A DNA stretch of 64,000 bases from a virus. A program made the position numbers and the translations under genes. Each line of letters opens with the position of its first letter. Positions within the stretch are counted from its first letter, which is position 1. The DNA lies in IMG/VR virus record IMGVR_UViG_3300044617_001156; one strand, given 5' to 3'. The notes under the pieces were generated by a model. The model was given only the letters and a program-made list of their open reading frames with translations. It searched no databases and had not been told where the DNA came from. Of the stretch, positions 38,039 through 63,436 are shown in pieces.

Positions 38039-38356
38039 ATGGCAAACGGAAGATTAGCAGCAGTTACTCCAACTGCAAATACAGATACTTTATTGTATCA
38101 AGTTCCATCAACATCAACTGCAAGCACTGTAATTAATATCTGCAATACGAATACTTCATCTGCCGGTATTCGCATTTCAATTGAAAACAGTAGCGCAGTA
38201 GGAATTGCATCAACCAACTGTATTGAATTTGATACAATAGTTTCGGCAAAATCTGTTCTTGAAAGAGGTGGAATTGTTTTAGGAAATCAACAGAAACTGT
38301 TCTGCAATTCATCAATTTCTGGTGTTAACTTTATTGTTTACGGGTACGAAGAATAA
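38039..38356 (+). CDS. Small structural beta-sandwich-like protein
   Basis: LLYQVP...INICN...IEFD...LERGGIVL...VYGYEE. Confidence 0.7.
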   Translation: MANGRLAAVTPTANTDTLLYQVPSTSTASTVINICNTNTSSAGIRISIENSSAVGIASTNCIEFDTIVSAKSVLERGGIVLGNQQKLFCNSSISGVNFIVYGYEE

Positions 38357-40353: not shown

Positions 40354-41031
40354 ATGATACCTAAAATTATTCATCAAACTGGACCTGACAGAAAAAAGTG
40401 GCATTCAATCTGGAAAGAGTGTTCCGAAAGTTGGAAGAACACCTTTCCAGATTTTCAATATATGTACTGGACTGATGATGACATAAGAAATCTAGTCAAA
40501 GAACAATATTCAGAATTTTTAGAATTATACGATGCTTTCCCGCATCATATAATGAGAGTTGATTTTGCAAGATTCTGCATTTTACATTCTTATGGTGGAA
40601 TTTATGCAGATCTCGATATGTATTGTTATAAAAACTTTTATGATTTACTAAAAAGAAACCTTTATATTGCAGAATCTTGGAGTGAATGGGGAGAAAAGGT
40701 TCAGAATTCATTAATGATTTCTACGCCAAATCAAGAGTTCTGGGAAAAATGTATGTTTTTTTCTGGCGTTAAGTTTCTCTCAAATCATCAAAATTATTTT
40801 GATGATTATATTTTAGAATCGTGCGGTCCTAAGTTAATTTCTAGAATCTTAGATCCTTCTGTCAAATTTCTCCCAAAGGAATTGTTTAATCCTAAAGTTG
40901 AAAACCAGTTTAGTTTGTGTTGTGATAATGCAGAAAAATATAAAACTGCTCTCGATGACTTCAATAATTTAAAAAAAGAAAAAACTATTTTTACCAGACA
41001 CTTTTTAACTGGAGAATGGCCTACTAGTTGA
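40354..41031 (+). CDS. Glycosyltransferase, GT32/DxD family
   Basis: MIPKIIHQT...W.D...DFAR..IL...GGIYADLD...GP. Confidence 0.9.
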   Translation: MIPKIIHQTGPDRKKWHSIWKECSESWKNTFPDFQYMYWTDDDIRNLVKEQYSEFLELYDAFPHHIMRVDFARFCILHSYGGIYADLDMYCYKNFYDLLKRNLYIAESWSEWGEKVQNSLMISTPNQEFWEKCMFFSGVKFLSNHQNYFDDYILESCGPKLISRILDPSVKFLPKELFNPKVENQFSLCCDNAEKYKTALDDFNNLKKEKTIFTRHFLTGEWPTS

Positions 41032-41071
41032 AATAAATAATATTGACTGAATAATATAAAGAGTTTGAACT

Positions 41072-41707
41072 ATGGCATTTCAGAGTATCTGGTTTGAAAC
41101 CGGATTAAATCAAAAAATCATAGACATCATCGAAGAAGATCTCAAAGATAATTTCGATTCGCAACTACAAGACTCACGAGTTGGTGATGGTGATTATGGA
41201 ACAGTAGATAGAAATAAAAGAAACGCAAAAAATGCATGGGTTCCTACAACACACTGGGTTGCTGGTTTCGTATGGCATTACGTGCAGAGAGCAAATAGAG
41301 AAAACTTTCTTTATGATTTAACAAATATTGATGGAGAATCACTTCAATACACTGTGTATGGCGAAGGTGAATATTATGGTTGGCATAATGATGCGGGTAT
41401 TTCCACGTATTACAAACCAGTATCGTCAGGTAATCGCGGGCATACTGGAGACTGTTTAAGCGACTTTGTAAATGAAAACTGCGAGAAAGTAAGAAAGTTA
41501 TCTTTTAGTTTGCTTTTATCTGATCCTGATACTTATGAGGGTGGTAATCTTCAATTATTAGATGAAACGGGAAAGTCTTATATTTCTCCACGACAAAAAG
41601 GAACCATTATTCTTTTTGATTCTAGAACACAACATAGAGTTCAAAAAGTAACTAAAGGTGTTCGCAAGTCATTAGTTGGTTGGGTAGTTGGTCCACGTTT
41701 TAAATAA
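41072..41707 (+). CDS. 2OG-Fe(II) oxygenase (PKHD/P4H-like)
   Basis: WHND...RKLSFS..LSDP..YEGG...FDS...HRV..VTKG.R.SLVGW..GP. Confidence 0.92.
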   Translation: MAFQSIWFETGLNQKIIDIIEEDLKDNFDSQLQDSRVGDGDYGTVDRNKRNAKNAWVPTTHWVAGFVWHYVQRANRENFLYDLTNIDGESLQYTVYGEGEYYGWHNDAGISTYYKPVSSGNRGHTGDCLSDFVNENCEKVRKLSFSLLLSDPDTYEGGNLQLLDETGKSYISPRQKGTIILFDSRTQHRVQKVTKGVRKSLVGWVVGPRFK

Positions 41708-41722
41708 GAATGAGGTGATAAT

Positions 41723-42439
41723 ATGGCAGAACAAATGACACAACAAGAACTTGACTATCAAGAAAGAGTCAATTCTGGAACATCACCAACAAATAATAAG
41801 GAGTTTGATAAGAATGGATACCTAGTCTTAAGAAATCTATGGGATCCAAAAGATCTTTACTGTGAACCACCAACAATCAAAGGTCAATATAATTACTTTG
41901 GAAAAATTGATAAGTTTAACCATAATCCTGCAGAAAATCAGGTAGAAGGTTCAACTTCAAGGTATTATTATCCACCTTATAAGTACGCCCATTCGCAAAT
42001 TCGAATGAAACTTGAAAAAGCGATTGGCAAAAAACTTTATAATACTTATTATTATGACCGCTTTTATAATCCAGGGCAAGCACTGACTAAACATGCAGAT
42101 CGTCCAGCATGTGAGATTTCAGTTACAGTCCATGTGGGATCTAATATCAAAACTCCATGGCCTATTTGGATCAAAACACCGGACATTTACACGAGTGATG
42201 AAAAAACCAATGTTATAAGGAGAGGCGAAAATCGCTCAGTGATTTTAAATCCTGGTGATGGTATGATTTACAAAGGATGTGAAAGACCTCATTGGAGAGA
42301 TCCAATGCCAACCGAATATCATAGAACTTGGTATGGTAAGAAAACAGAAAAGGAAGGTTTATATTATCATCAAATCTTTTTCCACTATGTTCTTGCCGAT
42401 GGCATTCGTTCACATTATGCAGGTGATTCTGGAAATTAA
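41723..42439 (+). CDS. 2OG-Fe(II) oxygenase-like protein
   Basis: HADRPACEISVT...PGDG.IY.G...HWR...QIFFHYV. Confidence 0.8.
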   Translation: MAEQMTQQELDYQERVNSGTSPTNNKEFDKNGYLVLRNLWDPKDLYCEPPTIKGQYNYFGKIDKFNHNPAENQVEGSTSRYYYPPYKYAHSQIRMKLEKAIGKKLYNTYYYDRFYNPGQALTKHADRPACEISVTVHVGSNIKTPWPIWIKTPDIYTSDEKTNVIRRGENRSVILNPGDGMIYKGCERPHWRDPMPTEYHRTWYGKKTEKEGLYYHQIFFHYVLADGIRSHYAGDSGN

Positions 42440-42444
42440 TTTTT

Positions 42445-43266
42445 ATGAACTTTATACCATTAACAAGTTTACCTAGAAGTGGATCAACTTTACTTCTTTA
42501 CATTCTAAATCAGAATCCAAAATTTACAATTGGACCTGATTCTGAAATCGGTCAGTTACTGAATATTAATAAAGAATTTATATGTAGTAGTATATCACAT
42601 TTCCAATTACCCCACGAAACCGTTTCGGATTGTTTTTACAATTTTTGTAGGTCTGGGGTAGATTCGTGGATTAAAACAATCTCAGAACCAGAAACTATTT
42701 TCGTAGATAAGTCTAGACACTGGTTAAAAGATTTGGATTATATTTTTCAACTTTTCCCAAAATTAAAAATAGTAGTTACAATCAGAGATTTAAGGTCCGT
42801 CATAAATTCCTTCGAAAAAATATCACAAGATTCTTTATTCGTTAATAGATCAGATTCATTTCATACAATACACGAAGATCTACAATACCAAAGAGTAGAT
42901 AATATTTTAAATTTAGATTATCTCAGAGATGGATTATTTTCGCTAAGACAACTCATAGATATTCCAAAAAAATATAAGAACCAAATCTTTATTTCCAGAT
43001 ACGAAGATCTTATTGAAGACCCACAAAATCAGTTAAATGAGATTTATGATTTTCTTGGACTTGATCGATACACACATGATTTTAATAATTTAACTCAAGA
43101 TTTTTATAATGATAATCCATATCAACCCTTTGGACGCCATAAGATAAAATCAAAAATAGAAAAATCAAACACAGAAAGTTCTCTAAGATTAAGAGAGGAT
43201 ATTCAAGATATGATTTTTAGTCATTATCACTGGTACTTTAAGGAATTCTATCCAGAAAAATTATGA
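42445..43266 (+). CDS. Sulfotransferase
   Basis: SLPRSGSTLL (5'-PSB motif), DKSR.W, RD...S, RYEDL..P. Confidence 0.9.
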   Translation: MNFIPLTSLPRSGSTLLLYILNQNPKFTIGPDSEIGQLLNINKEFICSSISHFQLPHETVSDCFYNFCRSGVDSWIKTISEPETIFVDKSRHWLKDLDYIFQLFPKLKIVVTIRDLRSVINSFEKISQDSLFVNRSDSFHTIHEDLQYQRVDNILNLDYLRDGLFSLRQLIDIPKKYKNQIFISRYEDLIEDPQNQLNEIYDFLGLDRYTHDFNNLTQDFYNDNPYQPFGRHKIKSKIEKSNTESSLRLREDIQDMIFSHYHWYFKEFYPEKL

Positions 43267-43841
43267 ATATTGTCAAACTATATGATACATTTCCCATTTA
43301 TTTGATTAAAGATTTCGAACAAGTTGAAGATAGTTTAAGAATTGCTTTAATGGCAGTTGTTTTAGAAAATAAAGTTCGAAACCATAGAGGAAAAGGTGGT
43401 TCTTTTTTAATTGATGAAGACTATAAAAATTTCTTCAAAAGTCTTTATAGTAAATTTTTCGAATTCTCAAAAACTATATTTGGAGATTTTACCACCTCAA
43501 ATAATAACGAAAGTTGTTGGTCTTATGCAAGTAATAAATTCGATCATGGTCCAGGATTATTACATAATCACCGGAATACTTCAACAATAAATTCGGTTTA
43601 TTATTTGAATGTTCCACAAACAGTATCAATATCTAATGGATCAATATCTTTTATATTAAATGGGGAGACATTTTCATATAAACCTGAAAATGGAGATCTA
43701 TTAATTTTTCCAAATTATCTAAATCATAAGATTAATTTTCTAGACGATGAAGAATATAGAATTTCTATTAATATGGAAATTAAATGTGAAGAGTCTTCAG
43801 AAGAATTATTTTCAAAAGTGGATATTTTAAATATTACATAA
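43263..43841 (+). CDS. Putative 2OG-Fe(II) oxygenase (HxH type)
   Basis: HNH...SVYYL...P..GDLLIFP.YL.H...RISI. Confidence 0.8.
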   Translation: MNIVKLYDTFPIYLIKDFEQVEDSLRIALMAVVLENKVRNHRGKGGSFLIDEDYKNFFKSLYSKFFEFSKTIFGDFTTSNNNESCWSYASNKFDHGPGLLHNHRNTSTINSVYYLNVPQTVSISNGSISFILNGETFSYKPENGDLLIFPNYLNHKINFLDDEEYRISINMEIKCEESSEELFSKVDILNIT

Positions 43842-43862
43842 ATACCTAAAAAGTATAAGATA

Positions 43863-45941
43863 ATGGCTCTTAACTTCCCAGATAGTCCTACACTGAATCA
43901 AATATACACTGATAGTACTTCAGGTTTTTCTTATCAGTGGAATGGAACAGTATGGATAAGTTTTACACCATCATCTACGGGTAATATTAAAGTACTGGAT
44001 GATATTTCAGGTTCTTTCAATGGTTCTACACAGACCTTTGCATTAACCTCATCAACTATTGCACTGGCCCCACCAAACCCACAATCAGTCATTGTAAATC
44101 TTGGTGGTGTTGTACAAGACCCAAGTGATGACTATACAATCTCAGGGTCAAACATCATATTCTCCACACCGCCGACAGCAGGTCTTACATTCTCTGGTAT
44201 TGTCTTAGGTGTTGCAGTTCCTGTTGGAATTTCAACTGCAGATGCATACTATCGTCAGATTTATACACCAACAGGAGTACAGACCTCATTTAATTTCGTC
44301 AATGGATATACGGTAGGTTATCTGGATGTTTATCATAATGGTGCAAAGTTAGTTCCAGCAACAGACTACACAGCAACTGATGGCCTTAATTTCTCACTGA
44401 TTACTGCAGCACAATCAGGAGACGTTGTAGAAGCAATCGGATATAGAGTATCTGCAGTTACGATTGTAAATGGAAACTTAAATTCCTTAACCGTCAGTGG
44501 AATTTCAAGTCTTGCTGGTGCTACAAACCTTGGAAGTACTCTAAACGTAACTGGAGTTTCTACATTAGGTACTGTAAGAATTGCTTCAGGTATCGTTACT
44601 GCATCATCAGGTATTGTTACTTATTATGGTGATGGCAGTAATCTAAACTTAACAGGTAATACAACTGCTGGTGTAACTTCCACAAGTTCAGTCAATACCG
44701 TTGGTGTTGTTACTGCAGGTATCATTGATAGTTTTATTCCAGTAGATCAGAAGTTAGTAAGCACCAATTTAACTATTAATAACGGCCAAGAGAACATTAG
44801 TTTTGCCGAAGAATTAGTAGTTGATACTGGTTCGATATTCACAGTCAGTGCTGGAAGCACTGTGAGAATGAATGCTCTCGATACCATTAATGCATCTATA
44901 GTATCTGCTTCGGTAGATTTAGATATTCCTAGTGGTACTATAGCACAAAGACCTTCTGCTCCTACTTCAGGTTCTTTTAGATACAATAGTACATATGGTA
45001 TTCTAGAGTTTTATGATGGAACTAATTGGAGATTAGTATCATTAGGTGAACCATTATTTTCAAGTTCATCTAGTATCGGCGTCTTTGGTGGGGGCAGTTC
45101 ACCAATAAATGTAATAGATTACATAACCATAGAAACTACAGGAAATGCTGCTAACTTCGGAACCCTTACTGGAGCTCGCCAATCACTTGCCGCGTGTTCT
45201 TCCATTGCCAGAGGTGTTTTTGGTGGTGGTTTTGTTCCAGCAACTCCATCAGGTATAAGTTTAAGTGCAATAGATTACGTTGCCATAATATCTAGAGGAA
45301 CTGCCACTAATTTTGGAACCCTTACTGGAGCACGCTATAATTTAGCAGCGTGTTCTTCAAGCACTCGCGGTGTCTTTGGTGGTGGTAATAATGGTTCTAA
45401 CATCATAGATTACATCACAATAGCATCTACAGGAGACGCTATTGACTTTGGTGACCTTACTGTAGCACGTGGTGGTATTGCTGCATGTTCTTCTAGTACC
45501 AGAGGTGTTTTTGGTGGAGGTTATTTTACAGCACCATTTCCAGGAACACCATCAATTTATGCCACAATAGACTACATCAACTTCACATCCGTGGGAAATG
45601 CTACTAATTTTGGTTCACTTTCAACAAACCGCCGAAGTCTAGCAGCATGTTCTTCAAGCACCAGAGGTGTCTTTGGTGGTGGTTATACTCCATCACTAAC
45701 AAACGTAATAGACTTTATCACCATAGCATCCACAGGTAGCGCAACTGACTTTGGAGATTTAACTACTGCACGCTCTGGTTTAGCAGCTTGTTCCTCAAGT
45801 ACCAGAGGTGTCTTTGGTAGTGCAAATATAATGGACTACATTACAATAGCATCCACAGGAAATGCGCTTAACTTTGGTTCTTTTTCCACGTCACGTAGTG
45901 GATTAGCAGCCTGCTCCAACGCACACGGTGGTCTCTCATAA
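43863..45941 (+). CDS. Tail fibre with C-terminal six-repeat (putative beta-propeller) domain
   Basis: MALNFPDSP; LDDIS..F.G; PSGT..QRP...RYN; 6x FGGG..IDY..I...GNA..FG.L...R...ACSS. Confidence 0.85.
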   Translation: MALNFPDSPTLNQIYTDSTSGFSYQWNGTVWISFTPSSTGNIKVLDDISGSFNGSTQTFALTSSTIALAPPNPQSVIVNLGGVVQDPSDDYTISGSNIIFSTPPTAGLTFSGIVLGVAVPVGISTADAYYRQIYTPTGVQTSFNFVNGYTVGYLDVYHNGAKLVPATDYTATDGLNFSLITAAQSGDVVEAIGYRVSAVTIVNGNLNSLTVSGISSLAGATNLGSTLNVTGVSTLGTVRIASGIVTASSGIVTYYGDGSNLNLTGNTTAGVTSTSSVNTVGVVTAGIIDSFIPVDQKLVSTNLTINNGQENISFAEELVVDTGSIFTVSAGSTVRMNALDTINASIVSASVDLDIPSGTIAQRPSAPTSGSFRYNSTYGILEFYDGTNWRLVSLGEPLFSSSSSIGVFGGGSSPINVIDYITIETTGNAANFGTLTGARQSLAACSSIARGVFGGGFVPATPSGISLSAIDYVAIISRGTATNFGTLTGARYNLAACSSSTRGVFGGGNNGSNIIDYITIASTGDAIDFGDLTVARGGIAACSSSTRGVFGGGYFTAPFPGTPSIYATIDYINFTSVGNATNFGSLSTNRRSLAACSSSTRGVFGGGYTPSLTNVIDFITIASTGSATDFGDLTTARSGLAACSSSTRGVFGSANIMDYITIASTGNALNFGSFSTSRSGLAACSNAHGGLS

Positions 45942-45956
45942 ATACCTAAAAAACTT

Positions 45957-47027
45957 ATGGCTAACCTAAGAGTTGATACCATCAAAAATAGAAGTGGTGA
46001 TAATGGACCAATCTTTGAAGGAAACCTAAGTTTTTCTTCTACCTCACATATGGTTCTACCAAAAGGAACAACAGGAGAAAGACCTGTTGGAGTTTCCACC
46101 GGTTCTATGAGATATAATACAGATACCAGTCTTGTAGAGTATTGGAATGGAACTTCTTGGTCTTCCGTAAGTACTTTTGATAGTAGTTTCCGTGGTGTCT
46201 TTGGTGGTGGTAGTCCAATCTCTACAATAGATTATATTCTGATTGCTGGAAGTGGTGGCAATTCAAATAACTTCGGAGACCTTACTGTACCACGCTATAA
46301 TTTAGCAGCGTGTTCTTCAAGCACTCGCGGTGTCTTTGGTGGTGGTGTTCCTACGGTAAACGTAATTGACTTCATTACAATAGCATCTACAGGAAACGCA
46401 ACTGACTTTGGCGATTTAACTGTAGCACGTGGATATCCTGCTTCATGTTCATCAAGTACTAGAGGTGTCTTTGGTGGTGGTTATGCTCCATCATCATCAA
46501 ACGTAATTGACTTCATTACAATAGCATCTACAGGTAATGCCACTGACTTTGGAGACCTTACTGTAGCACGTCAATATCTTGCTGCATGTTCCTCAAGCAC
46601 TCGTGGTGTCTTTGGTGGGGGTCTTGCTGGACCAACAGCATCAAACGTAATAGACTTCATTACAATAGCATCTACAGGAAACGCAACTGACTTTGGAGAC
46701 CTTACAACAACATCTTATTATGTATCATCTTGTTCCTCAAGCACTAGAGGTGTCTTTGGTGGTGGCGCTCCTGCGACAAACACAATAGATTACATCACTA
46801 TAGCAACTACAGGAAATGCTATTAACTTTGGAAACCTTACAGTCCCACGTTATGCGACAGGATCTTGCTCTTCAAGCACTCGCGGTGTCTTTGGTGGTGG
46901 TGTTCCTGCGGCAAACATAATAGACTACATTACCATAACAACCACAGGAAATGCTATTAACTTTGGAACCCTTAGTGTAGCACGTTCTAGTCTTGCTGCA
47001 TGTTCAGATTCACACGGTGGTCTCTAA
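45957..47027 (+). CDS. Six-repeat putative beta-propeller fibre-tip protein
   Basis: LPKGTTGERP..GSMRYN..EYWNG followed by 6 repeats; ends SDSHGGL. Confidence 0.85.
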   Translation: MANLRVDTIKNRSGDNGPIFEGNLSFSSTSHMVLPKGTTGERPVGVSTGSMRYNTDTSLVEYWNGTSWSSVSTFDSSFRGVFGGGSPISTIDYILIAGSGGNSNNFGDLTVPRYNLAACSSSTRGVFGGGVPTVNVIDFITIASTGNATDFGDLTVARGYPASCSSSTRGVFGGGYAPSSSNVIDFITIASTGNATDFGDLTVARQYLAACSSSTRGVFGGGLAGPTASNVIDFITIASTGNATDFGDLTTTSYYVSSCSSSTRGVFGGGAPATNTIDYITIATTGNAINFGNLTVPRYATGSCSSSTRGVFGGGVPAANIIDYITITTTGNAINFGTLSVARSSLAACSDSHGGL

Positions 47028-47078
47028 TAATACACTAAAGAAAATCAAATAAATACTCCAGAACATTCGTAATATGAT

Positions 47079-47972
47079 ATGACTGAAAATACTTCAGCAA
47101 TTACTACACAAGAATTCACACCAAGCGCAGAAATATCTATTAGTTCTCTAAAAAGCGAACTTACACAATTACCAAAAGAATATTCTCCAATGTTACAAAA
47201 CATTCAGGAGAATTTACCTGTTATTCAAGCAACATCAGAGAACTTCTATAAGTCTCATTCACAATATATGAATGCGACTGTAGATATCACTGACCTTACA
47301 CCACTTCATAGTGTTCGGCATATTCTAGCACGTGTTGAACGTAAGAAAGCAGCACTTGCCGAAGCACAAATCAAGAGACGTAAGGATGATATTGAACTTC
47401 GCCGTAAGCAAAAGCAACTAGAAGAAACCACTGATGAGTTTGATCGCGAACTTCTAGAGATTGAAATCATTGAACTGATGAATGGTTTAACCTCTGGTGA
47501 GAATTACATCAAGGGTGCAATTCGGGAAATGTCCTTCTTGATGACCCAATATCAATCGGTTCTTGATAAACTAGGTAAGGAACACCTAACTGAAGAGGAC
47601 TTTGAAGAAGATGAAAAGCGTTATCACGTGATGACTGCTCTGAAGCAAGCACTCAATGCATCCCGTCCCCGTGGTGGTTTGATTGACGAAGGAAACTCCA
47701 TTTATCTGTTTGATATTGGAGTCAACGTCGCACACGCACAAGCAGAAATCTTCAATTATCTCAAACAAGAACAAGAGATGATTGAAAATGGGCTTGCTCC
47801 ATCACATGAAATGACGATGGAATGGTTGGAAAGGTGTGCTGATAAGTTCAAGGACTGCGGAACCCGATTTGCAGAAAGTCGTGGTCTTATTCCATTGGAC
47901 CAGAAATCATTAGCACAACCAGAACCAGTACAATTACTGAAAGGAACTACTGAACCTACTGAAGAGAACTAA
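47079..47972 (+). CDS. Coiled-coil hypothetical protein
   Basis: Charged helical heptads; embedded in the repeat-protein operon. Confidence 0.75.
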   Translation: MTENTSAITTQEFTPSAEISISSLKSELTQLPKEYSPMLQNIQENLPVIQATSENFYKSHSQYMNATVDITDLTPLHSVRHILARVERKKAALAEAQIKRRKDDIELRRKQKQLEETTDEFDRELLEIEIIELMNGLTSGENYIKGAIREMSFLMTQYQSVLDKLGKEHLTEEDFEEDEKRYHVMTALKQALNASRPRGGLIDEGNSIYLFDIGVNVAHAQAEIFNYLKQEQEMIENGLAPSHEMTMEWLERCADKFKDCGTRFAESRGLIPLDQKSLAQPEPVQLLKGTTEPTEEN

Positions 47973-47975
47973 ATT

Positions 47976-48707
47976 ATGAACTTCCATCTTGCTATCGGCA
48001 CACCAATGTATGGTGGTGCTTGTACCAGTGAATATACACAATCACTTTTAGCACTCACGGAAAGTGTAAAGAATAGTGGAAATGAGATTACATCAATCTT
48101 TCTTGGAAATGAAAGTCTTATTCAACGTGGAAGAAACACGATTGCTTATCACTTTCTAAACAGTTCTGCGACACACTTAATGTTTATTGATGCAGACATT
48201 AAGTTTAGTCCAAGAGATATTGCAAGAATGATTGCTGCCGATAAGGAACTCATTATTGGTCCAGTACCACTGAAAGGTATTGACTGGGAACAAGTGAGAA
48301 CGGCTGCATTGGAAGGCAAACAAGACCTTTATTCACATACTGGTGTCTTTAATATCAATCATCTTCCTGGACATTCAATGGTAAGTGAAGATGAACCATT
48401 TGAAATTGAACACGGCGGTGCTGCTTTTATGATGATAAGACGTGATGCTTTTGAAGCACTTATTCCTCATACTCCAACGTATGTAAATGGTGGTCGTTCA
48501 GTTCCTCCTGGTGCTGAGGTACACGATTTCTTTCGTGTAGAAATCAAACCAGAAACAAAACATCTACTCTCTGAGGATTATTTCTTCTGCGAGAGTTATC
48601 GTAAGATTGGTGGAAAAACTTGGATTGCCCCCTGGGTTCAAACGGGACATTTTGGTTCCTACCTATTCAACGGTAACTATTCAGAATTCGCTAAGTCTAA
48701 TAAATAA
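47976..48707 (+). CDS. GT-A-fold glycosyltransferase-like protein
   Basis: TPMYGG, ESLIQRGRN, LMFIDAD (DxD), SEDYFFC, H.G. Confidence 0.8.
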   Translation: MNFHLAIGTPMYGGACTSEYTQSLLALTESVKNSGNEITSIFLGNESLIQRGRNTIAYHFLNSSATHLMFIDADIKFSPRDIARMIAADKELIIGPVPLKGIDWEQVRTAALEGKQDLYSHTGVFNINHLPGHSMVSEDEPFEIEHGGAAFMMIRRDAFEALIPHTPTYVNGGRSVPPGAEVHDFFRVEIKPETKHLLSEDYFFCESYRKIGGKTWIAPWVQTGHFGSYLFNGNYSEFAKSNK

Positions 48708-48726
48708 CTAAAAATACCAAAGAACA

Positions 48727-49077
48727 ATGGCTATAACCCATCAAATGATAAAATACCGTCTCAATCCAGACGGAACCGTACCTGAATTCTTATGTAAAGA
48801 AGGTATGGGTGGTATTTTTCTAAAGTATGACCCAACCACTCCAGCACCACAAGACAATATTATGTTTGGTCTTAGTGAGTATCCAGTAACTACAGATACT
48901 CCTGGTATCGTTGGTATTCTCACAACTAAGACCGAACTCACCGCATATCTCAATGAGGTTCTTGCTGGTGCTACTCAACCAAACCCAGAAGACCCCCAAG
49001 GCGAACCCATTCCAGTAGATATCCCTGCTCAAGTAGAATGGGCGTGGGGCATTTATAAAGCACAAAACGGTCTCTAA
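48727..49077 (+). CDS. Hypothetical protein
   Basis: KYRL..DGT.PEFL; preceded by TAAATA. Confidence 0.75.
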   Translation: MAITHQMIKYRLNPDGTVPEFLCKEGMGGIFLKYDPTTPAPQDNIMFGLSEYPVTTDTPGIVGILTTKTELTAYLNEVLAGATQPNPEDPQGEPIPVDIPAQVEWAWGIYKAQNGL

Positions 49078-49094
49078 TATTTCTTTCCTACATA

Positions 49095-49898
49095 ATGACT
49101 AAATCATTCTTTTTTGACTCCGGACTTCCACGTTCCGGTTCAACTGCTTTCTCTTCCATACTCAATCAAAACCCACAAATTCACGCAGGGGCATTGTCTC
49201 CTGCGTTTGAATTAATGTATCAAATTCAATCTTATTTTGAAATCAGCGAACAAGCAAAGGCATATCCAAAACCAGAGTGTAATTCAAAGATTATCTCCAG
49301 TGTCCTAGAGAACTACTATAGTGATACAGAGAAACCTTATATTGTAGATAAAAGTCGTGCGTGGATAGGTCAAATACCATTCATAAGACAATATATTACA
49401 CAGAACCCCAAGATTATTTGTACGGTAAGACACCCACTAGATATTCTTGCTTCCTTTATTGATTTAATTCATAAGCATCCTAATGAGGTTTCATTCTTAG
49501 ATAAGGCGTTGATTTCTCAAAGAATATCACTGACTGACGATAATCGATGCGAGTTTCTAATGTCTCCTTCTGGAGTTGTTTTTAATTCAATGAATGGATT
49601 AGCAAAAGCATTCCACGAAGGTGATAGAAATTGTATTCACTTGATTGATTATGATGACTTAGTGAATAATCCAGAAGAAGTAATGAATGGTGTCTATGAG
49701 TTCTTGGAGTTAGAACCTTATCAACACGACTTCAATTCCATTACCAATAGTCACCGCGAAAGAGACACTGAGGTTTATGGACTAAGCACAATGCATCAGG
49801 TTAAAGGAACACTTGAAAAAACTTCACGTTCTTATTCTGATGTGCTGAGTGATACTGTGATAAATAAATACAGAAATCTTGATTTTTGGAACAAATAG
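49095..49898 (+). CDS. Sulfotransferase
   Basis: GLPRSGST, NQNP, DKSRAW, VR.P.DILASF, YDDLV..P. Confidence 0.9.
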   Translation: MTKSFFFDSGLPRSGSTAFSSILNQNPQIHAGALSPAFELMYQIQSYFEISEQAKAYPKPECNSKIISSVLENYYSDTEKPYIVDKSRAWIGQIPFIRQYITQNPKIICTVRHPLDILASFIDLIHKHPNEVSFLDKALISQRISLTDDNRCEFLMSPSGVVFNSMNGLAKAFHEGDRNCIHLIDYDDLVNNPEEVMNGVYEFLELEPYQHDFNSITNSHRERDTEVYGLSTMHQVKGTLEKTSRSYSDVLSDTVINKYRNLDFWNK

Positions 49899-50120
49899 AT
49901 GTCTGAGATCAGAGTTGATAAAATACAACCTGTGCTTAATGGAGGAACTGTTACTCTTACGGGTATCACTACATTCTCTGGTACTGGTTCATTGACGCCT
50001 CCTGGAGGTCTTCCAGAGCAAAGAACTTCGGCACCAAGAGCGGGGCAGATTAGATTCGTTCAGGGTGATCTTGGAAATGCTGTAGAATATTATAACGGTA
50101 CTACTTGGACGCAGGTATAA
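49899..50120 (+). CDS. Short fibre adaptor-like protein (N-terminal module only)
   Basis: MSEIRVDKI...P.G..EQR...GQIRF...EYYNGTTW. Confidence 0.7.
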   Translation: MSEIRVDKIQPVLNGGTVTLTGITTFSGTGSLTPPGGLPEQRTSAPRAGQIRFVQGDLGNAVEYYNGTTWTQV

Positions 50121-51220
50121 TGTCTTCTCTTAAAATCACAAATATCTCAAATAAGAATAATAATAGTGGGGCAGTTATCTCAGGTATCTCTACTGTCTCG
50201 AGTGGAAATTTTACGTTGCCTTCGGGTACAACGGGACAAAGAGTAGGAATTGAATCTGGTTCTCTGAGATATAACACCACAGATAATATTTTAGAGTTTT
50301 ATACTGGAACTAGTTGGCTTGCAATTTCGCAGACTTCTACTTCACTATTTTCTCGCGGTCTTTTTGGTGGTGGTTTAGTCTCACCTGCATTATTAAACGT
50401 AATAGACTACATCACCATAGCAACTACAGGTAATGCTATTGACTTTGGCGACCTTACAGTAGCACGTCGTAATCCAGCGGCTTGTTCTTCAAGCACTCGT
50501 GGTGTCTTTGGTGGTGGTTATGCTCCATCAGTAACAAACACAGTAGACTATATCACTATAGCATCAGTAGGAAATGCTACTGACTTTGGTGACCTTACTG
50601 TAGCACGTCCTGCGGCAGCAGGTTGTTCCTCAAGTACTAGAGGTGTCTTTGGTGGTGGTCTTACTACCCCAACAGAATCAAACGTAATAGACTACATCAC
50701 CATAGCAACTACAGGCAATGCCACTGACTTTGGTGACCTTACTTTAGGACGCCGAACACCGGCAGCTTGTTCTTCAAGCACCAGAGGTGTATTTTCTGGT
50801 GGTTATAGTCCAACAATCACAAATGTAATAGATTACATTACTATAGCATCAGTAGGAAACGCAATTGACTTTGGCGATTTAACTGCAGCAAGTCGTACCC
50901 AAGGCGGGTGCTCATCAAGCACTCGCGGTGTTTTTGGTGGGGGTCTTGCTGGACCAGCAGCAACAAACACAATAGACTACATCACCATAGCAACTACAGG
51001 TAATGCCACTGACTTTGGTGACCTTACTGACGCACGTTATTTATTAGCAGCGTGTTCCTCAAGTACTAGAGGTGTCTTTGGTGGTGGATATAGTCCAAGT
51101 AAAAGCATAATGGACTATATTACCATAGCAACTACAGGAAATGCAACTAACTTTGGAGACCTTACTCTAGCACGTGCTTATCTAGCAGCTTGCTCCAGCA
51201 ACCACGGCGGTCTTTTATAA
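50120..51220 (+). CDS. Six-repeat putative beta-propeller fibre-tip protein
   Basis: LPSGTTGQR..GSLRYN..EFY followed by 6 repeats; ends SSNHGGLL. Confidence 0.85.
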   Translation: MSSLKITNISNKNNNSGAVISGISTVSSGNFTLPSGTTGQRVGIESGSLRYNTTDNILEFYTGTSWLAISQTSTSLFSRGLFGGGLVSPALLNVIDYITIATTGNAIDFGDLTVARRNPAACSSSTRGVFGGGYAPSVTNTVDYITIASVGNATDFGDLTVARPAAAGCSSSTRGVFGGGLTTPTESNVIDYITIATTGNATDFGDLTLGRRTPAACSSSTRGVFSGGYSPTITNVIDYITIASVGNAIDFGDLTAASRTQGGCSSSTRGVFGGGLAGPAATNTIDYITIATTGNATDFGDLTDARYLLAACSSSTRGVFGGGYSPSKSIMDYITIATTGNATNFGDLTLARAYLAACSSNHGGLL

Positions 51221-51223
51221 GTT

Positions 51224-51817
51224 TCACCAGCACCACAGCACTCCCGAGTAACGAAGACCAGAAGTAACCTCATCAACACGATGAGGATAAAGAAATAAAC
51301 TAGGCCAAGCAATAATTGATCCTGCTTTTGGTTTGACCTTATAGTCATCCCAGAAGACTAATTCACCACCTTCATAATCATCATTAAAACAAATAATCAT
51401 ACTCAACACAGGAATACCTTGTTCGGGTGGAGTAAATAATGACTTAATGTGATCTATGTGGCAACGCATAATTTGCCCTGGAACATAACGATTAAAACGG
51501 ATTTTAGAGAACTTATTCATAATTTGAAGAGTTCTCTCACCACCACCTTCAAATAAGACCTTCTCATTATAAGAAGCACCAGCAGCAATCACATAAGGTG
51601 TGAGAAGTGCTTGAAGTTCTTCAGTGGTATTCTGTACGTCAAGTTCTTTGGTTGGTTCGCTATTAAAAGTACCTGCCTGAGCGTTATACCAGGTGTGTGG
51701 TTTCCATTCACGATTTCCAATATCTTGGATAACGTAATCGCAAATATTCTTAGGTATCAGACCTTCCTCTACAACAATCAGGTCTTTTAGTTTGCTTTCT
51801 GGTTGATTTAATGTCAT
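51224..51817 (-). CDS. Prolyl-4-hydroxylase-like 2OG-Fe(II) oxygenase
   Basis: HIDH...NDDYEGGEL.F...WPS.FLYPH.V..V.SG.RYS; ATGA overlap with the rSAM stop. Confidence 0.88.
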   Translation of the reverse strand: MTLNQPESKLKDLIVVEEGLIPKNICDYVIQDIGNREWKPHTWYNAQAGTFNSEPTKELDVQNTTEELQALLTPYVIAAGASYNEKVLFEGGGERTLQIMNKFSKIRFNRYVPGQIMRCHIDHIKSLFTPPEQGIPVLSMIICFNDDYEGGELVFWDDYKVKPKAGSIIAWPSLFLYPHRVDEVTSGLRYSGVLWCW

Positions 51818-52752
51818 ATTACCTCTGCGGATTTTAATGGTCTTGCCTGTTCGCACTTACGGCAGAATGCTTGTTGGAACTTTGCCTTCTGAGTTTGATA
51901 TTCTTCTGAGTTCAGTATTTCTCTTAGTGATTGTTCTCTTATGTTACCACAACTATAGTCCTGATGGTAATCGTGACAACAATAAAACACATTACCATTC
52001 ACACCGAAATATAAGTTCTCAAAGTAACCAGCAGAACATCCAAGTGGTTGGTCTCCCCAATCAATTTCACCATGAGCAATCTTCTGGGTATCACATTCTG
52101 CACCATCGAGTGTTCCTGCACGGTCAACTAGTCCAGTCATAGAGAAGTTAATCCCCGGAGGACAACGTTGGAACTTTTCATAAACCTTAAGAAACTCTTG
52201 TTTATGATTTTCGCTTCCATCACCATTCACAATGACTGTAATAGGAAAGTTCAACCTAGAAGAATTCTCAAAGAGATACATTAACTGATAGTACATTCGG
52301 TACATTACAGAAACCGAAGAACCAGTCATATCTTTCCACTTCTTCTCATCCATCGTTGGAATATTCAATCGAAACTGCTTGATATTCTGTGGATTTTCAA
52401 TCAACCAATCAGTGAGTTCAGTGGTAATCATACTTCCATTGGAAATATGTTCGTAACGGAACCCAAGGTCCGTCATGATTTGCAGTTTCTCTTTGAATGT
52501 ATCATCTAGATTTGGTTCATTATAAGTTGCAAATGAGATATCATTGAACTCTTGAATGCTGTAAACTGAACGGATTTCAGTGAGTATTCTTTTAAATAAA
52601 TCCAAGTCCATACACTGCTTAGGTGCAGGAGTATCATAAGCATTTGGACAGAACCAACACTTGTAGTTACAATGAGTATTATTTTCTATCTGTGCAATAC
52701 GATATCCAAATCCGTGAAACTCTGGAAGTGGACGTGCTAATGCTGAAGTCAT
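51814..52752 (-). CDS. Radical SAM protein with SPASM/twitch domain
   Basis: CNYKCWFC motif; C-terminal C...G.V..CC.D...GNI...FCRKC. Confidence 0.9.
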   Translation of the reverse strand: MTSALARPLPEFHGFGYRIAQIENNTHCNYKCWFCPNAYDTPAPKQCMDLDLFKRILTEIRSVYSIQEFNDISFATYNEPNLDDTFKEKLQIMTDLGFRYEHISNGSMITTELTDWLIENPQNIKQFRLNIPTMDEKKWKDMTGSSVSVMYRMYYQLMYLFENSSRLNFPITVIVNGDGSENHKQEFLKVYEKFQRCPPGINFSMTGLVDRAGTLDGAECDTQKIAHGEIDWGDQPLGCSAGYFENLYFGVNGNVFYCCHDYHQDYSCGNIREQSLREILNSEEYQTQKAKFQQAFCRKCEQARPLKSAEVI

Positions 52753-53378
52753 TTATTCAAAGGAAGATAAGTTAGACTATCAATGGAACCCAGAGAGTTC
52801 TTTGCAAAGGTATTAAATGCAAGACTAATTCTTGGAAGGTCTGCTTTATTTTCAGGAACACTATGAGTAAGATTAGATGGGAACAGGATAAGTTCTCCAC
52901 TATTCAAAGGAAGCAAGAACGTTGCACTATTAAAGTTATTCTGCTTTTGAATGTTTAGATTGAATGAATGAGTGTTTGGATTACGGAACTCAATCGGTGG
53001 TAGGTTCTCATTGATTTGGAAATAAAACACACCACTTACAATACTATTAGGATGTACGTGTTCGTGATGTTTCTTTCCTTTCTCACAGATATTACTCCAT
53101 GCCTGGGTAATCACAAGTTCATCAGTACATTCAAGGACATTATGTACGTAAAACTTAAGGTATGCTTCAATGAACTCGCGGATGGATGCAAGTTCAGGTT
53201 CATCTAGCAGAAAAGTATTGGTTGATTGCTTCGCGTATTCTTTCTGCGACTTTTCGTTTAACTTATGTTCTAAAGACTTTACGTATTCTAGTTCCTTTGA
53301 AAAGTCTTTATGGTACTTGGAAATAAGAACTGGTTTTGGAAAGAGTTGAATTAATTCAGGTTGTTTCGGGGTTTCCAT
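52749..53378 (-). CDS. 2OG-Fe(II) oxygenase (TIGR02466-like)
   Basis: LFP.P...H.HPNS..SGVFY...LILFPS.L.H.V..N...RISLAFN. Confidence 0.88.
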   Translation of the reverse strand: METPKQPELIQLFPKPVLISKYHKDFSKELEYVKSLEHKLNEKSQKEYAKQSTNTFLLDEPELASIREFIEAYLKFYVHNVLECTDELVITQAWSNICEKGKKHHEHVHPNSIVSGVFYFQINENLPPIEFRNPNTHSFNLNIQKQNNFNSATFLLPLNSGELILFPSNLTHSVPENKADLPRISLAFNTFAKNSLGSIDSLTYLPLNK

Positions 53379-53436
53379 AAACAAATAAGATTATTGATTT
53401 TCAGTATACGATATTTAGAGAGAAAGCACAAGGGGT

Positions 53437-53444
53437 TATAAATA
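53437..53444 (+). promoter_or_regulatory. T4-type late promoter TATAAATA
   Basis: Exact consensus 18 nt upstream of ATG 53463; ATAAATA variants precede most tail genes (e.g. 29817, 36308, 43838, 45938, 61744). Confidence 0.75.
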
Positions 53445-53462
53445 TCTAAAAAGTATAATAAG

Positions 53463-54749
53463 ATGTCCTCTAGAGCAGCCAGACTTGCTGGATTTTCTAC
53501 AAGTATCTCACCACCAAGTAACTTAACAGTTGGTGTTGTAACTGCTACAAGTTTCGTTGGAAATGTAACGGGAACTGCAACAGGATTAAGTGGAACTCCA
53601 AATCTTAATGTTGGCGTGATTACTGCAACTTCTTATAGAGGTGATGGTTCTCAATTAACTGGTGTTGGTATTGGTGCTTCTAGTAATGTAAATACAACGG
53701 GTATTGGTACTTTTGGTACTGTTGTTGCTACTAATGACCTTGATATACCGAATGGAACCACTGAACAAAGACCTTTAGTACCAGTAACAGGTTCTATAAG
53801 ATATAATACCCAGTCTTCTGTTATTGAAGTTTATGATGGGTCATCGTGGAAAGGTGTAAGTTTATTAAATACTACTTTAAGTGGTGATATTGGAGTTTTC
53901 TCAAGTTTTAACGAAACTTATTATATTAATATTGCATCAACTGGTAATGCCTCTGATTTTGGAGACCTTAATTTAACAAAAAGAACTCATGCTGCATGTT
54001 CTTCAAGTACTAGAGGTTTATTTGGTGGAGGAACCTTCCCCTTTAGTGCTCCAACACCTGTTTTTCTGTCTGATATACAGTACAACAATCTATCAACAAC
54101 AGGAAATAATAAGTATTTTGGTGAGTTAACGGTAGCACGTACCCAACTTACTGCATGTTCTTCAAGTACTAGAGGTGTCTTTGGTGGTGGTATCATTACT
54201 CCAGCAGCAAATAATACAATAGACTACATCACCATAGCATCACTAGGGAATGGAACTGACTTTGGTGATTTAACCGTAGTACGTAGTAGTCTTTCTGCAT
54301 GTTCCTCAAGCACCCGTGGTATTTTTGGTGGAGGTACTCCATTATCAAACATAATAGACTACATCACCATAGCAACCACCGGTAACGCAACTGACTTTGG
54401 TGACCTCACAGTAGCACGCAGTAGTCTTGCTGCATGTTCCTCAAGTACTAGAGGTGTCTTTGGTGGTGGTCTTACTACCCCAACAGAATCAAACGTAATA
54501 GACTACATCACCATAGCATCAGTAGGAAATGCAACTGACTTTGGAGACTTAAGTGTAACACGTAGATCTCTTGCCGCATGTTCTTCATCAACTAGGGGTG
54601 TCTTTGGTGGTGGTTATGGTCCAACAGCATCAAACACAATAGACTACATCACCATAGCATCAGTAGGAAATGCACTTGACTTCGGTGATTTAACTATGCC
54701 TATTTCTAATCTTTCTGGATGCTCTAATGCACACGGTGGTCTCTCATAA
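53463..54749 (+). CDS. Six-repeat putative beta-propeller fibre-tip protein
   Basis: IPNGTTEQRP..GSIRYN..EVYDG followed by 6 repeats; ends SNAHGGLS. Confidence 0.85.
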   Translation: MSSRAARLAGFSTSISPPSNLTVGVVTATSFVGNVTGTATGLSGTPNLNVGVITATSYRGDGSQLTGVGIGASSNVNTTGIGTFGTVVATNDLDIPNGTTEQRPLVPVTGSIRYNTQSSVIEVYDGSSWKGVSLLNTTLSGDIGVFSSFNETYYINIASTGNASDFGDLNLTKRTHAACSSSTRGLFGGGTFPFSAPTPVFLSDIQYNNLSTTGNNKYFGELTVARTQLTACSSSTRGVFGGGIITPAANNTIDYITIASLGNGTDFGDLTVVRSSLSACSSSTRGIFGGGTPLSNIIDYITIATTGNATDFGDLTVARSSLAACSSSTRGVFGGGLTTPTESNVIDYITIASVGNATDFGDLSVTRRSLAACSSSTRGVFGGGYGPTASNTIDYITIASVGNALDFGDLTMPISNLSGCSNAHGGLS

Positions 54750-54755
54750 GACCAC

Positions 54756-54784
54756 TTGACGAACACCACTAATCTCTATAGAAT
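54756..54784 (+). promoter_or_regulatory. sigma70-like promoter TTGACG-N17-TAGAAT
   Basis: Hexamers at 54756-54761 and 54779-54784. Confidence 0.6.
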
Positions 54785-54843
54785 ACCTTTGCTGGGTTTG
54801 AAGAACACCGGTATCTTAAAGTAAATAAATACTTAAAAAACTC

Positions 54844-55220: not shown

Positions 55221-58200
55221 TTGAAAAAGAAATTATTATCACCCACTGAACTCAAGCAACTTCACGCTCAGCAAGAAGAGCAGAAGAAAATTCTTGCTAC
55301 CCAAAAATTAGAAGAAGAGAAAAATAAGAAATTAGTATCACCAAAGGAACTTCTAGACCCAGTAGTAGAACCCGTACCAATCGTTGAAAGTGTAGAAGTA
55401 TCTGAGGTTCCAAAGGACCCGATTGAAGTTCTGCGTGAGCGTATAGAAGAAGTACAATATTCAATACCAGAACCAAAGGATTATGACGAAGAGATTGCTT
55501 ATCTAGAAGCAATCCTTTCTACTAAATTAAATTCAAGTGACTTAAATCTTGAACCAATTCAGAATAGACTTTATGAACTAAAGGAAGAGATTTTAAATCT
55601 TCCTGAGGTTAAGTACTATGATGATGAGATTTCAGCACTTCAAGAACAACTGAACTCCATCGTAATTCCAGAAGTCAGATATTATGATGAGGAGATTTCA
55701 AGTCTTCAGCAGGAAATAAATGCGATTGAAATTCCTGAAGTTAAGTATTATGATAAAGACGTTCGGGATATTCACGAAAGACTAGACCTCATTAAACTAT
55801 CTGAAGATAATACCTTTCAGAAGCATGAAAGTATTCTGAATGAACTTAAAACTCTTACAAAGGAACTTACAAATAACTTAGAGCAGTTATACATTCCTGA
55901 AGAGTTTGATGCGTCTGAACTTGAAAATCATATCTCTACACTTCAAGAGAATGTAGTAGAAATCAAGAATGAATTATCTTCACTACCTGAAGTGAAGTAT
56001 TATGAGAATGAATTAACTGAACTTTCTCAGATGATAGAGAATGTAAGGAATTCTATTCCAAGCATTCCAGAAATTAAATACTATGATACTGAACTTCAAG
56101 ACTTAAGTTCTTTAATTGAAGAAGTTCGTAAGAATATTCCTGAACTTCCTGAGGTTCGTTATTATGAAAATGAAATCTCAGTACTGGAACAGAAGATTTT
56201 AGACGTTGAAAATCAAATTCCAGAGCTTCCAGAACTTCCTGAAGTTAAGTATTACGATAAAGAGATTACTCAACTTGAAGATAATGTTGTTTCTGTTAAG
56301 AAATCAATCAGCGAACTGAAGAAGTTAGTTGATGGTATTGAAATTCCAGTACCAACTGATTGGTCTTCAGATATTCAATCCATTTATAGAGAGATTGAAA
56401 AACTTAAGGAAGTACCAGTCCTTGAAGAAAGTACAGATCCCTTAGTACCATTAGATCAAAAGTTCGCAACTCTTGATGATCTCCAAAATCATTATCGGTT
56501 GTTTATCAATCGTATTCAACAACAACTCGCATCACTTGGTGGTGGTGGAGAAACACGTCTAGAGTTTTTAGATGATATAGACCGTACATCAGCAAAGACT
56601 GATGGTTACGTACTGTCTTATCAGGCATCTACTGGTAAGTTCATTGGTGTTCCGATGAGTGGCGGTGGTGGTGGTGGTGGTTCAGGCATCTCCACTTATG
56701 CTGATGTTGCTGGAATTGCTACCTATGCTACCAGTGCTGGAGTATCAACTTATGCTTCGATCGCAGGTATTGCTACTTATTCAAGTACTTCTGGTATCGC
56801 CACTTATGCGACAACTGCTGGTGTAGCAACTTACTCATCAGTATCTGGAATTTCCACTTACTCAGGCATTGCTGGTATCGCCACATATGCTACTACTGCT
56901 GGAATTGCTACCTATTCTGGTATTTCTGGTATTGCTACTTATGCCTCTAATGCAGGAGTAGCAACTTATTCTACATTCAGTGGTATTGCTACTTATTCCT
57001 CTAATGCAGGCGTAGCAACTTACTCAGGCATCGCTGGTGTTTCCACTTATTCAGCAACGGCTGGAATTGCTACCTATGCTTCAACCGCAGGTATCGCCAC
57101 TGTTTCTCAAGGACTAACAGGAACTCCTAGTATTTCTGTAAGTTCATTAACAGCATCTAATGCTTCTTTTAGTGGTATTGTAACCGCATCAAATAGTGCT
57201 GTAATCAAGACAGGAACAGCAACAACGGCATTAATTGTAGAAGGTGACGCAAGAGTTATTGGTATTCTTACGATTGGTACTTCCAGTATTACCTTGGATG
57301 GTACTATTAACCAAGTCAATGTAGGCACAGGTGTTACACTTCATCATACCAATGGAGTTCAAGTAGGAGGGAATACTCTTCATACTACTGGTCTCACACT
57401 TAATCATATTAATGTCTCAGGTATTTCTACAATATCTCAGTTAGACATCACTAATGGTATCAATGTAAGTGGAGTAATTAGCGCAACTGAATTTATTGGA
57501 AACTTTAGTGGTAATTCTTCAACAGCATCTTATGCTACTAATTCTGGTATTGCTACTTATGCCTCTAGTGCTGGTGTATCAACATACTCAAGTACTTCTG
57601 GTATCGCCACTTATTCAACAGCGGCTGGTATTGCTACTTATGCTTCTACAGCAGGTATCTCCACATACTCTACAACCGCTGGTGTAGCAACATATTCACC
57701 AGTATCTGGAGTGTCCACTTATTCAAATACTGCGGGTATAGCGACTTATTCTTCAGTATCTGGAATTGCTACCTACGCTATCAACGCGGGTATCTCCACT
57801 TATGCTTCTAGTGCTGGAATTGCTACTTATTCAAGTACTTCTGGTATTGCTACTTACGCTACCAATGCTGGTATATCAACTTACGCATCTACATCTGGTG
57901 TTTCTACTTATTCAGAAACTTCAGGTATCTCCACATATGCTAGCACTGCGGGAGTATCCACTTATGCTTCTAATGCTGGTGTAGCAACTTACTCATCAGT
58001 ATCAGGAATTGCTACTTATTCAACATCAAGTGGTATTGCAACTTATGCTTCATCAGCAGGCATAGCGACTTATGCACAAACTGCTGGTATTGCTACCTCT
58101 GCTGGAGCCGCAACGACAGCAACTTATCTTGCTGATGCTGCAAATATAATTACAGGAACAATTAATAAGGACAGAATTAGCACCACAAATGCTCTGACTA

Positions 58201-61720: not shown

Positions 61721-61769
61721 GACACTAAAAGAGTTCTAATAGAATAAATAGATGTAAAAAGAAATAAAA

Positions 61770-62849: not shown

Positions 62850-62862
62850 GGAGGTAAAAACC

Positions 62863-63408: not shown

Positions 63409-63436
63409 ACTAGATAATACATCTTACATTTAAATT

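Follow-up and report, generated by a model that had tools for sequence, protein, structure and literature searches.

Paralogous Kelch-type propellers in a cyanophage tail-fibre module: putative host-binding heads with signs of slow ectopic gene conversion

How does a phage that encodes several copies of one putative binding head keep the variable surfaces of these copies distinct, and are pieces of those surfaces passed from one copy to another? The question is raised by four paralogous genes, here called A to D, in IMG/VR virus record IMGVR_UViG_3300044617_001156, a stretch of 64,000 nucleotides (nt) that was analysed as a whole and is referred to as the window. The genes of the window point to an uncultured T4-like cyanomyovirus as its source, and the four-gene cluster lies within the tail-fibre module. 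A preliminary description of the cluster had proposed propeller adhesins whose blades are exchanged through a conserved scaffold, yielding a combinatorial repertoire of receptor-binding surfaces. In this study, we arrived at a different account, which we regard as probable: the genes appear to encode four stalk/neck/Kelch-propeller paralogs, putative host-binding heads, among which loop patches undergo slow ectopic gene conversion.

Four paralogs with a predicted Kelch-type propeller

All four genes lie on the + strand and share one architecture, in which an N-terminal stalk or anchor of differing length is followed by a neck motif of roughly 45 amino acids (aa), common to the four proteins, and directly after it by the propeller. 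Paralog A (43863..45941, 692 aa) has a long fibre-like N-terminal part with Ig-like domains, and its propeller starts at about 45078. Paralogs B (45957..47027, 356 aa) and C (50120..51220, 366 aa) carry only a short anchor before the neck, and paralog D (53463..54749, 428 aa) has a shaft-like N-terminus. The start of C is placed at the ATG at 50120, which is used in the gene calls of sister contigs; a TTG at 50105 is also open. Counting units anchored on the [DN]FG motif, we found exactly six repeats in each protein followed by a terminal HGGL(S/L), as the preliminary description had stated; blade 1 of D and the final B-C loop in A are degenerate. The 24 units show 55-86% identity to one another, and the blade cores 41-86%. 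In C, the propeller (50352-51206) has an internal period of two blades (285 nt), along which B-C loops of an eight-residue L-type take turns with those of a seven-residue Y-type, and ATT with ASV in the C-D turns; this period suggests a triplicated two-blade unit with pseudo-threefold symmetry.

Profile searches gave little indication of what the repeats are. None of the four proteins matched a Pfam family at E<=0.1, the Kelch profiles included, NCBIfam has no model for them, and a profile search of PDB sequences returned nothing significant, its lone non-significant match falling in a BTB region. The only PHROG that matches the propeller is phrog_19111, of unknown function there, while A additionally matches phrog_18673 (tail fiber; E 3e-18). 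Structure prediction was far more informative. A search of 1.84 billion cluster representatives supplied homologues, 100 of which were aligned for the propeller domain of C (50351-51217), and AlphaFold2 modelled this domain with a predicted local distance difference test score (pLDDT) of 97.5 and a predicted template modelling score of 0.94; the large domain-only alignment was needed, as a 14-sequence alignment of full-length C gave a pLDDT of 42. Foldseek matched the model to the Kelch domains of KLHL12, KLHL3 and Keap1 (E 2e-23, template modelling scores 0.86-0.88). The VIA search, which is independent of Foldseek, gave Z scores of 38.1 for KLHL17, 37.3 for KLHL12 and 36.8 for Keap1, against 24.6 for bacterial YjhT, 16 for galactose oxidase and no more than 21 for non-Kelch six-bladed propellers (YWTD, NHL, lectin). 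The nearest viral models in BFVD were uncharacterised Caudovirales proteins, proteins of phage S-SKS1, a Burkholderia phage 'Kelch-motif' protein and jumbo-phage 'virion structural proteins', with poxvirus Kelch proteins also among the matches. Only 18-22% of the members of the Atlas neighbours have a Kelch Pfam match. The six-bladed propeller of the preliminary description is thus borne out by a high-confidence model, in which the C-terminal domain is of the Kelch type.

DSSP applied to the model of C assigns four strands to each blade (A, ACSS; B, RGVFGGG; C, IDYITIA; D, DFGDL). The chain begins with a B strand (RGLFGGG) and finishes with an A strand (AACSS), so that in the model the ring is closed in a 3+1 fashion, the C-terminal A strand completing blade 1. 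Keap1 is closed in the same way, and its B-C and D-A loops form the ligand pocket (PMC12314335). Across the 100 homologues, column entropy is high only in the B-C loop (loop 1) and the D-A loop (loop 2) and low in the strands, the A-B turns and the C-D turns. Because the topology of a four-stranded meander places the B-C and D-A loops together, both variable loops are predicted to lie on one face, as had been anticipated for them, and this face would correspond to the ligand pocket face of Keap1. The S-S-S-T-R-G turn and the invariant C-D loop T-G-N-A-x-D-F-G-D-L would lie on the opposite face, and a conserved H-G-G-L follows the closing strand in all four genes (51203-51217 in C, for example). 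These three elements may provide a surface on which the neck motif docks, or else a metal site.

The variable loops also appear to differ from the scaffold in how they evolve. For the scaffold, the ratio of nonsynonymous to synonymous divergence (dN/dS) is 0.17-0.22; the estimates are 0.75-0.9 for the D-A loops and 1.3-2.7 for the B-C loops, both of these coming from unreliable alignments of few codons. We further compared the window with L001, a syntenic ENA contig whose flanking proteins are 88-96% identical to those of the window. The dS of the propellers (0.62-0.89) is the same as that of the flanking genes (0.75-0.88), and their dN is three to five times higher.

Several features make it most likely that the propellers are exchangeable host-binding heads: the location in the fibre module, the tail-fibre-type N-terminus of A, the shared neck motif, the interchangeability of the heads and the concentration of variation on the Kelch ligand face. 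The binding surface for a structure of the host envelope would then most likely be formed by the B-C and D-A loops. As to location, the four genes sit between two fibre genes that end in an S74 chaperone domain (36353-37804 and 55221-59984). Interchangeability is seen in L001, whose D gene (L001:14733-15869) starts with the same 40 residues as D of the window and ends in a glycine-rich domain. The C-terminal part of this L001 protein resembles a glycine-rich 451-aa protein encoded elsewhere in the window (38356-39711), and at the position of that 451-aa gene L001 encodes a 434-aa protein (L001:2336-3640) with a D-like stalk and a propeller. We think it unlikely that the propellers are instead enzymes or sugar-handling modules, that they decorate the capsid or tail and bind something else there, or that they work inside the cell as adaptors on host proteins, in the manner of eukaryotic and poxviral Kelch proteins. 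In favour of such roles are the structural match to YjhT/NanM, a Kelch mutarotase, and to galactose oxidase, the poxvirus matches and the many modification enzymes encoded between the propeller genes. Yet the propellers lack a BTB or any other adaptor domain, their loops show no conserved pocket residues that look catalytic, and the same anchor carries either a propeller or another C-terminal head. The fibre setting of the genes, the tail-fibre PHROG domain of A and the variable ligand face likewise argue against such roles, propeller genes follow a tail adaptor gene in another phage type, and the jumbo-phage Kelch-like proteins annotated as virion structural share the fold.

Shared tracts and exchange among the paralogs

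A likely trace of exchange is a pair of DNA blocks that recur between paralogs and that proved, as first described, to be exact and maximal. The 84-nt tract at 50624..50707 (+), in blade 3 of C, has the same sequence as 54435..54518 (+), in blade 5 of D, and covers the end of the A strand, the B strand, the B-C loop LTTPTESN and the start of the C strand. The 56-nt tract at 45331..45386 (+), at the junction of blades 2 and 3 of A, is repeated at 46291..46346 (+), at the junction of blades 1 and 2 of B, and spans the D-A loop RYNL, the A strand and the B strand. Neither block can be extended, the two are the longest exact repeats in 43800-54800, and the identity of their in-register flanks falls to 73-74%. 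The loops YAPS and LAGP, also noted before as recurring across genes, do so within shorter exact matches that comprise the B strand and the loop: 30 nt for YAPS in blades B3 and C2 (46464..46493 in B, 50501-50530 in C; +) and 24 nt for LAGP in blades B4 and C5 (46611..46634 in B, 50933-50956 in C; +).

We assessed these tracts with a Sawyer-type permutation test on junction-centred units, each bounded by the FG motifs of two successive blades, which were codon-aligned and reduced to variable sites; the longest concordant run of each pair was compared with 2000 column permutations. Among the 35 units of the window and L001, a run of 66 sites in the pair C2-3/D4-5 and one of 54 sites in the pair A5-6/C5-6 of L001 each reached a global p of 0.0005, and a run of 43 sites in A2-3/B1-2 reached 0.0025. 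L001 thus has a significant pair of its own, and a 67-nt exact tract is common to its A and C genes; the loop within this tract, GAPGNTN, is not the one seen in the window tracts. All three of the tracts in the window and L001 contain the block that codes for the A-B hairpin plus one adjacent variable loop, which points to the hairpin block as the shared homology used. When two further contigs, L013 and L012, were added, giving 13 propeller genes of four contigs and 65 units, the five longest cross-gene exact matches (84, 75, 67, 56 and 54 nt) each lay within a single genome; the 75-nt tract is shared by the two short propeller genes of L013. The longest exact match between genomes, over 62 between-genome gene pairs, is 48 nt. 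Pairs above the 5% global threshold number 7 of 530 within a genome and 3 of 1550 between genomes (odds ratio 6.9, Fisher p 0.004), and significant tracts occur within genes as well as between them. The gene conversion suspected at the outset is therefore upheld both by the p values of the window tracts and by the enrichment of tracts within genomes. As far as can be read from the sequences, these results support ectopic gene conversion in which the paralogs exchange short patches of 56-84 nt, not whole blades. The idea of exchange by recombination between paralogs stands, but what moves is a patch with a single loop and not a blade.

Could the tracts be left over from a recent duplication of blades, or be kept alike by selection for the same peptide? 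All blades are homologous, the two-blade period of C hints at a history of duplication, and B1 and B2 of L013 look like a tandem duplicate. However, a recent duplication would make whole blades or genes alike, whereas the identity of the shared blocks drops abruptly to background on both sides, and the two copies of a tract belong to separate genes and do not occupy the same blade position (C3 with D5; the A2/3 with the B1/2 junction). Peptide selection, for its part, would not fix synonymous sites, and the 84-nt tract is identical at every synonymous site over its 28 codons (66-68 variable alignment sites). We consider common descent or shared selection very unlikely as the source of the tracts.

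A tree of 42 blade cores (96 nt each) was poorly resolved, with 2 of 39 branches supported, and was used only for counts of label clustering. Blades do not cluster by gene in it (p 0.81); there is weak clustering by genome (p 0.008) and by position in the propeller (p 0.026).

Gene conversion of this kind could proceed as follows. The DNA of the A-B hairpin, about 36 nt long and highly similar in every blade, would provide the homology for recombination, and homologous recombination in the phage would occasionally copy a patch of 56-84 nt, the hairpin and one adjacent loop, from one blade to another, either across paralogs or within a gene. Conversion would in this way spread single loops and partly homogenise the scaffolds within a genome.

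Stability of the locus and the pace of exchange

How often such copying takes place can be gauged from other assemblies of the same locus. When exact copies of a neighbouring protein were sought, the locus turned up in 14 contigs, and DNA was available for seven of them, from different JGI and ENA samples. All seven are collinear with the window from end to end, at 99.7-100% identity and with zero indels; three are identical to it, and four differ by 4-45 single-nucleotide polymorphisms (SNPs). Only six SNPs across the seven assemblies fall inside the four propeller genes, and no variant of blade order, loop or length was seen at the consensus level in any of them.

A diversification system in operation, exchanging blades or loops often within a population or an infection cycle so that the receptor-binding repertoire keeps shifting, would be expected to look different from this, and we judge it extremely improbable. 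Loop-bearing cross-gene tracts do occur in all four related contigs examined, and the hairpin DNA, so similar in all blades, could act as a recombination anchor. Set against this are the collinear assemblies without loop or blade variants and the content of the genes themselves, in which 23 of the 24 B-C loops and 23 of the 24 D-A loops of the window are unique and the number of blades is always six, in all 13 genes. The combinatorial repertoire of the preliminary description finds no support here. Its statement that no reverse transcriptase is involved holds: none was found among the 56 open reading frames of the window that were scanned with PHROGs, Pfam or NCBIfam (60728-64000 being covered with PHROGs only or uncovered), nor did these scans find a site-specific recombinase or an invertase. 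The mismatches between four closely matching pairs of blade units span all base pairs and are not adenine-specific, so that neither feature of a diversity-generating retroelement, a reverse transcriptase or adenine-specific template and variable repeats, was seen in the reading frames scanned and the unit pairs compared. Given the collinear assemblies, the unique loops, the fixed six blades and the lack of a dedicated enzyme among the reading frames scanned, exchange appears to be rare and to run on an evolutionary time scale, and not to be a programmed or high-frequency diversification.

There is next to no chance that the identical blocks are assembly artefacts, by repeat collapse or chimeric joining in a region of 24 similar units: the same sequence is present in seven contigs, the four with SNPs of their own being independent assemblies, which excludes the misassembly that was to be guarded against from the start. 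In addition, neither the 84-nt nor the 56-nt block reaches the length of the last k-mers to judge by the contig names (k119, k141), and the sequence on either side of each block is unique.

Between related phages, larger steps occur as well. A whole propeller is swapped for a glycine-rich head, as in the D genes of the window and L001, and the number of propeller genes changes: L013 (5384-9940) has three of them (738, 376 and 375 aa) upstream of a conserved gene for a 297-aa protein, where the window has two. A search with this 297-aa neighbour protein found one distant locus in viral contigs and three in metagenomes.

Several points speak against slow gene conversion among host-binding heads as we have set it out, or limit how far it can be pressed. 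The adhesin role is drawn from context only, with virion location and binding both putative, and the predicted single variable face is argued from strand topology and Kelch precedent. The one cultured phage with a homologue at E<=1e-5 is S-SKS1, in which the protein is annotated as hypothetical. The stability of the locus is that of consensus assemblies, which rare population variants would escape. The permutation test ignores uneven variability along the repeat, so that runs of 35-38 sites may be spurious; only the top five fragments are safe, and the contrast within versus between genomes is immune to this weakness. Finally, the mean proportion of synonymous differences in the scaffold (pS) is about 0.45 whether paralogs, positional orthologues or non-orthologues are compared, which makes genome-wide homogenisation indistinguishable from a codon-usage plateau.

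The fibre module, the propeller family and known systems

The assignment to the T4-like cyanophages is based on psbA (194-1258), on genes for gp32 and for baseplate and tail proteins, and on the long S74-ended fibres; gp59 and a gp5-like hub are also encoded in the window, and its baseplate proteins are gp48, gp53 and a gp26-like one. In DNA sequence, cultured phages offer no close match: the 10.9-kb region of the propeller genes gave zero megablast matches to cultured phages, and the neighbouring tail genes gave only short blastn matches, to Synechococcus myoviruses. The window also encodes a long fibre of 2018 aa. A gene for a Mom-family (DNA modification) protein (29175-29816; Pfam PF25680, E 2e-21) is located just upstream of this fibre gene.

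The propeller genes are interleaved with enzyme genes in three stretches (40354-43841, 49095-49898 and 51224-53384), which encode one DXD glycosyltransferase, two sulfotransferases, at least four 2-oxoglutarate (2OG)-Fe(II) oxygenases, some of them prolyl-hydroxylase-like, and a radical S-adenosylmethionine (SAM)/SPASM protein. Among other contigs, a sulfotransferase and two oxygenases adjoin the propeller genes in L018, and no such modification enzymes stand beside the propeller genes in L016 and L017. Most B-C loops have a proline at one aligned position, a possible hydroxylation target. A link between the radical SAM/SPASM gene (51814-52752, - strand) and the blade cysteine was considered and dropped, the cysteine not being conserved across the family in the consensus of 100 homologues. 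The same gene contains 43 of the 45 differences between the window and one of its near-identical assemblies, L006, a pattern that resembles a recombined patch. In L001, an inserted IS605 OrfB/TnpB-type gene absent from the window (L001:12769-13947) separates the radical SAM gene from the oxygenase gene that comes next.

The family to which the propellers belong is large. The search of cluster representatives returned 10,493 matches at E<=0.001, of which 3,800 had E<=1e-30, and many members are 630-aa proteins with two propellers. The family comprises more than 10,000 clusters at 50% identity, so far viral only and without a Pfam or NCBIfam model. The phrog_19111 proteins and the S-SKS1 propeller proteins belong to it (E 1e-23 to 1e-30 to the PHROG). 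S-SKS1, a Synechococcus siphovirus and thus of another morphotype than the phage of the window, has the family at 21 matching places (34% identity), one copy standing by a tail-fiber gene and a 2OG oxygenase. In another phage type, members are found beside a podovirus-type tail adaptor gene.

We found no description of Kelch or propeller heads in cyanophage fibres in the literature. The Kelch domains of KLHL12, KLHL17, KLHL3, Keap1 and YjhT/NanM have in common with the phage propellers the six four-stranded blades, a glycine doublet after strand B, a tyrosine in strand C, an arginine before strand A, the 3+1 closure by a C-terminal A strand and the ligand face of B-C and D-A loops. Sequence identity to them is 12-18%, however, and the phage proteins have phenylalanine in place of the strand-D tryptophan of Kelch, no BTB/BACK part, very regular repeats, an invariant C-D loop, the C-terminal HGGL and a tail-fibre setting.

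With regard to exchange, the nearest parallels come from a fungus and from other phages. The HNWD genes of Podospora anserina are paralogs that end in propeller repeats, and the DNA of these repeats is reportedly very similar from one repeat to the next. The published account of these WD40 genes (het-d/het-e) describes exchange of repeats within and between paralogs, variable residues on the interaction face and a highly variable number of repeats (PMC1805685; Paoletti, Saupe and Clave 2007). The phage propellers resemble them in the exchange within and between paralogs and differ in being six-bladed Kelch and not seven-bladed WD40 folds, in their fixed number of blades, and in blade DNA that is not near-identical (blades 55-86% alike) and of which only short patches move. 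The T-even gp38 adhesins consist of hypervariable segments between conserved glycine-rich motifs, and recombination tends to fall in or near these motifs (PMC3157838; Trojet et al. 2011). Conserved glycine-rich scaffold motifs that separate hypervariable loops in a host-specificity head, a putative one here, are shared with our propellers. In contrast, the gp38 tip protein is present in single copy, contains a polyglycine sandwich and is unrelated in sequence and fold, whereas the phage studied here has at least four paralogous Kelch propellers per genome and exchange among paralogs of one genome. One might speculate that the roughly 36 nt of hairpin DNA (C-S-S-S-T-R-G-V-F-G-G-G) are conserved also as a recombination anchor and that the blades are a library of loop cassettes which alters host range at ecologically relevant rates. 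We hold this to be improbable; if it were true, the 24 blades per genome and the thousands in co-infecting relatives would be a shared library, a propeller counterpart of the gp38 motif system that works without a reverse transcriptase. On the same speculation, the proline-containing loops might be modified further by the enzymes encoded nearby, namely the prolyl-hydroxylase-like oxygenases, the sulfotransferases and the glycosyltransferase.

Host recognition by cyanophages, marine and freshwater, is poorly understood, and their tail-fibre regions are rich in unannotated genes. The propeller family offers a compact and well-predicted putative binding head whose variable face can be read from sequence, and it could aid the prediction of host range from metagenomes. 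Its stable six-bladed scaffold with 12 replaceable loops may have potential for the engineering of binders. What the window adds is a test of stability at the population level, a contrast of tracts within and between genomes, and a head swap between sister phages. The tracts within genomes suggest that paralogous fibre heads share loops without dedicated machinery.

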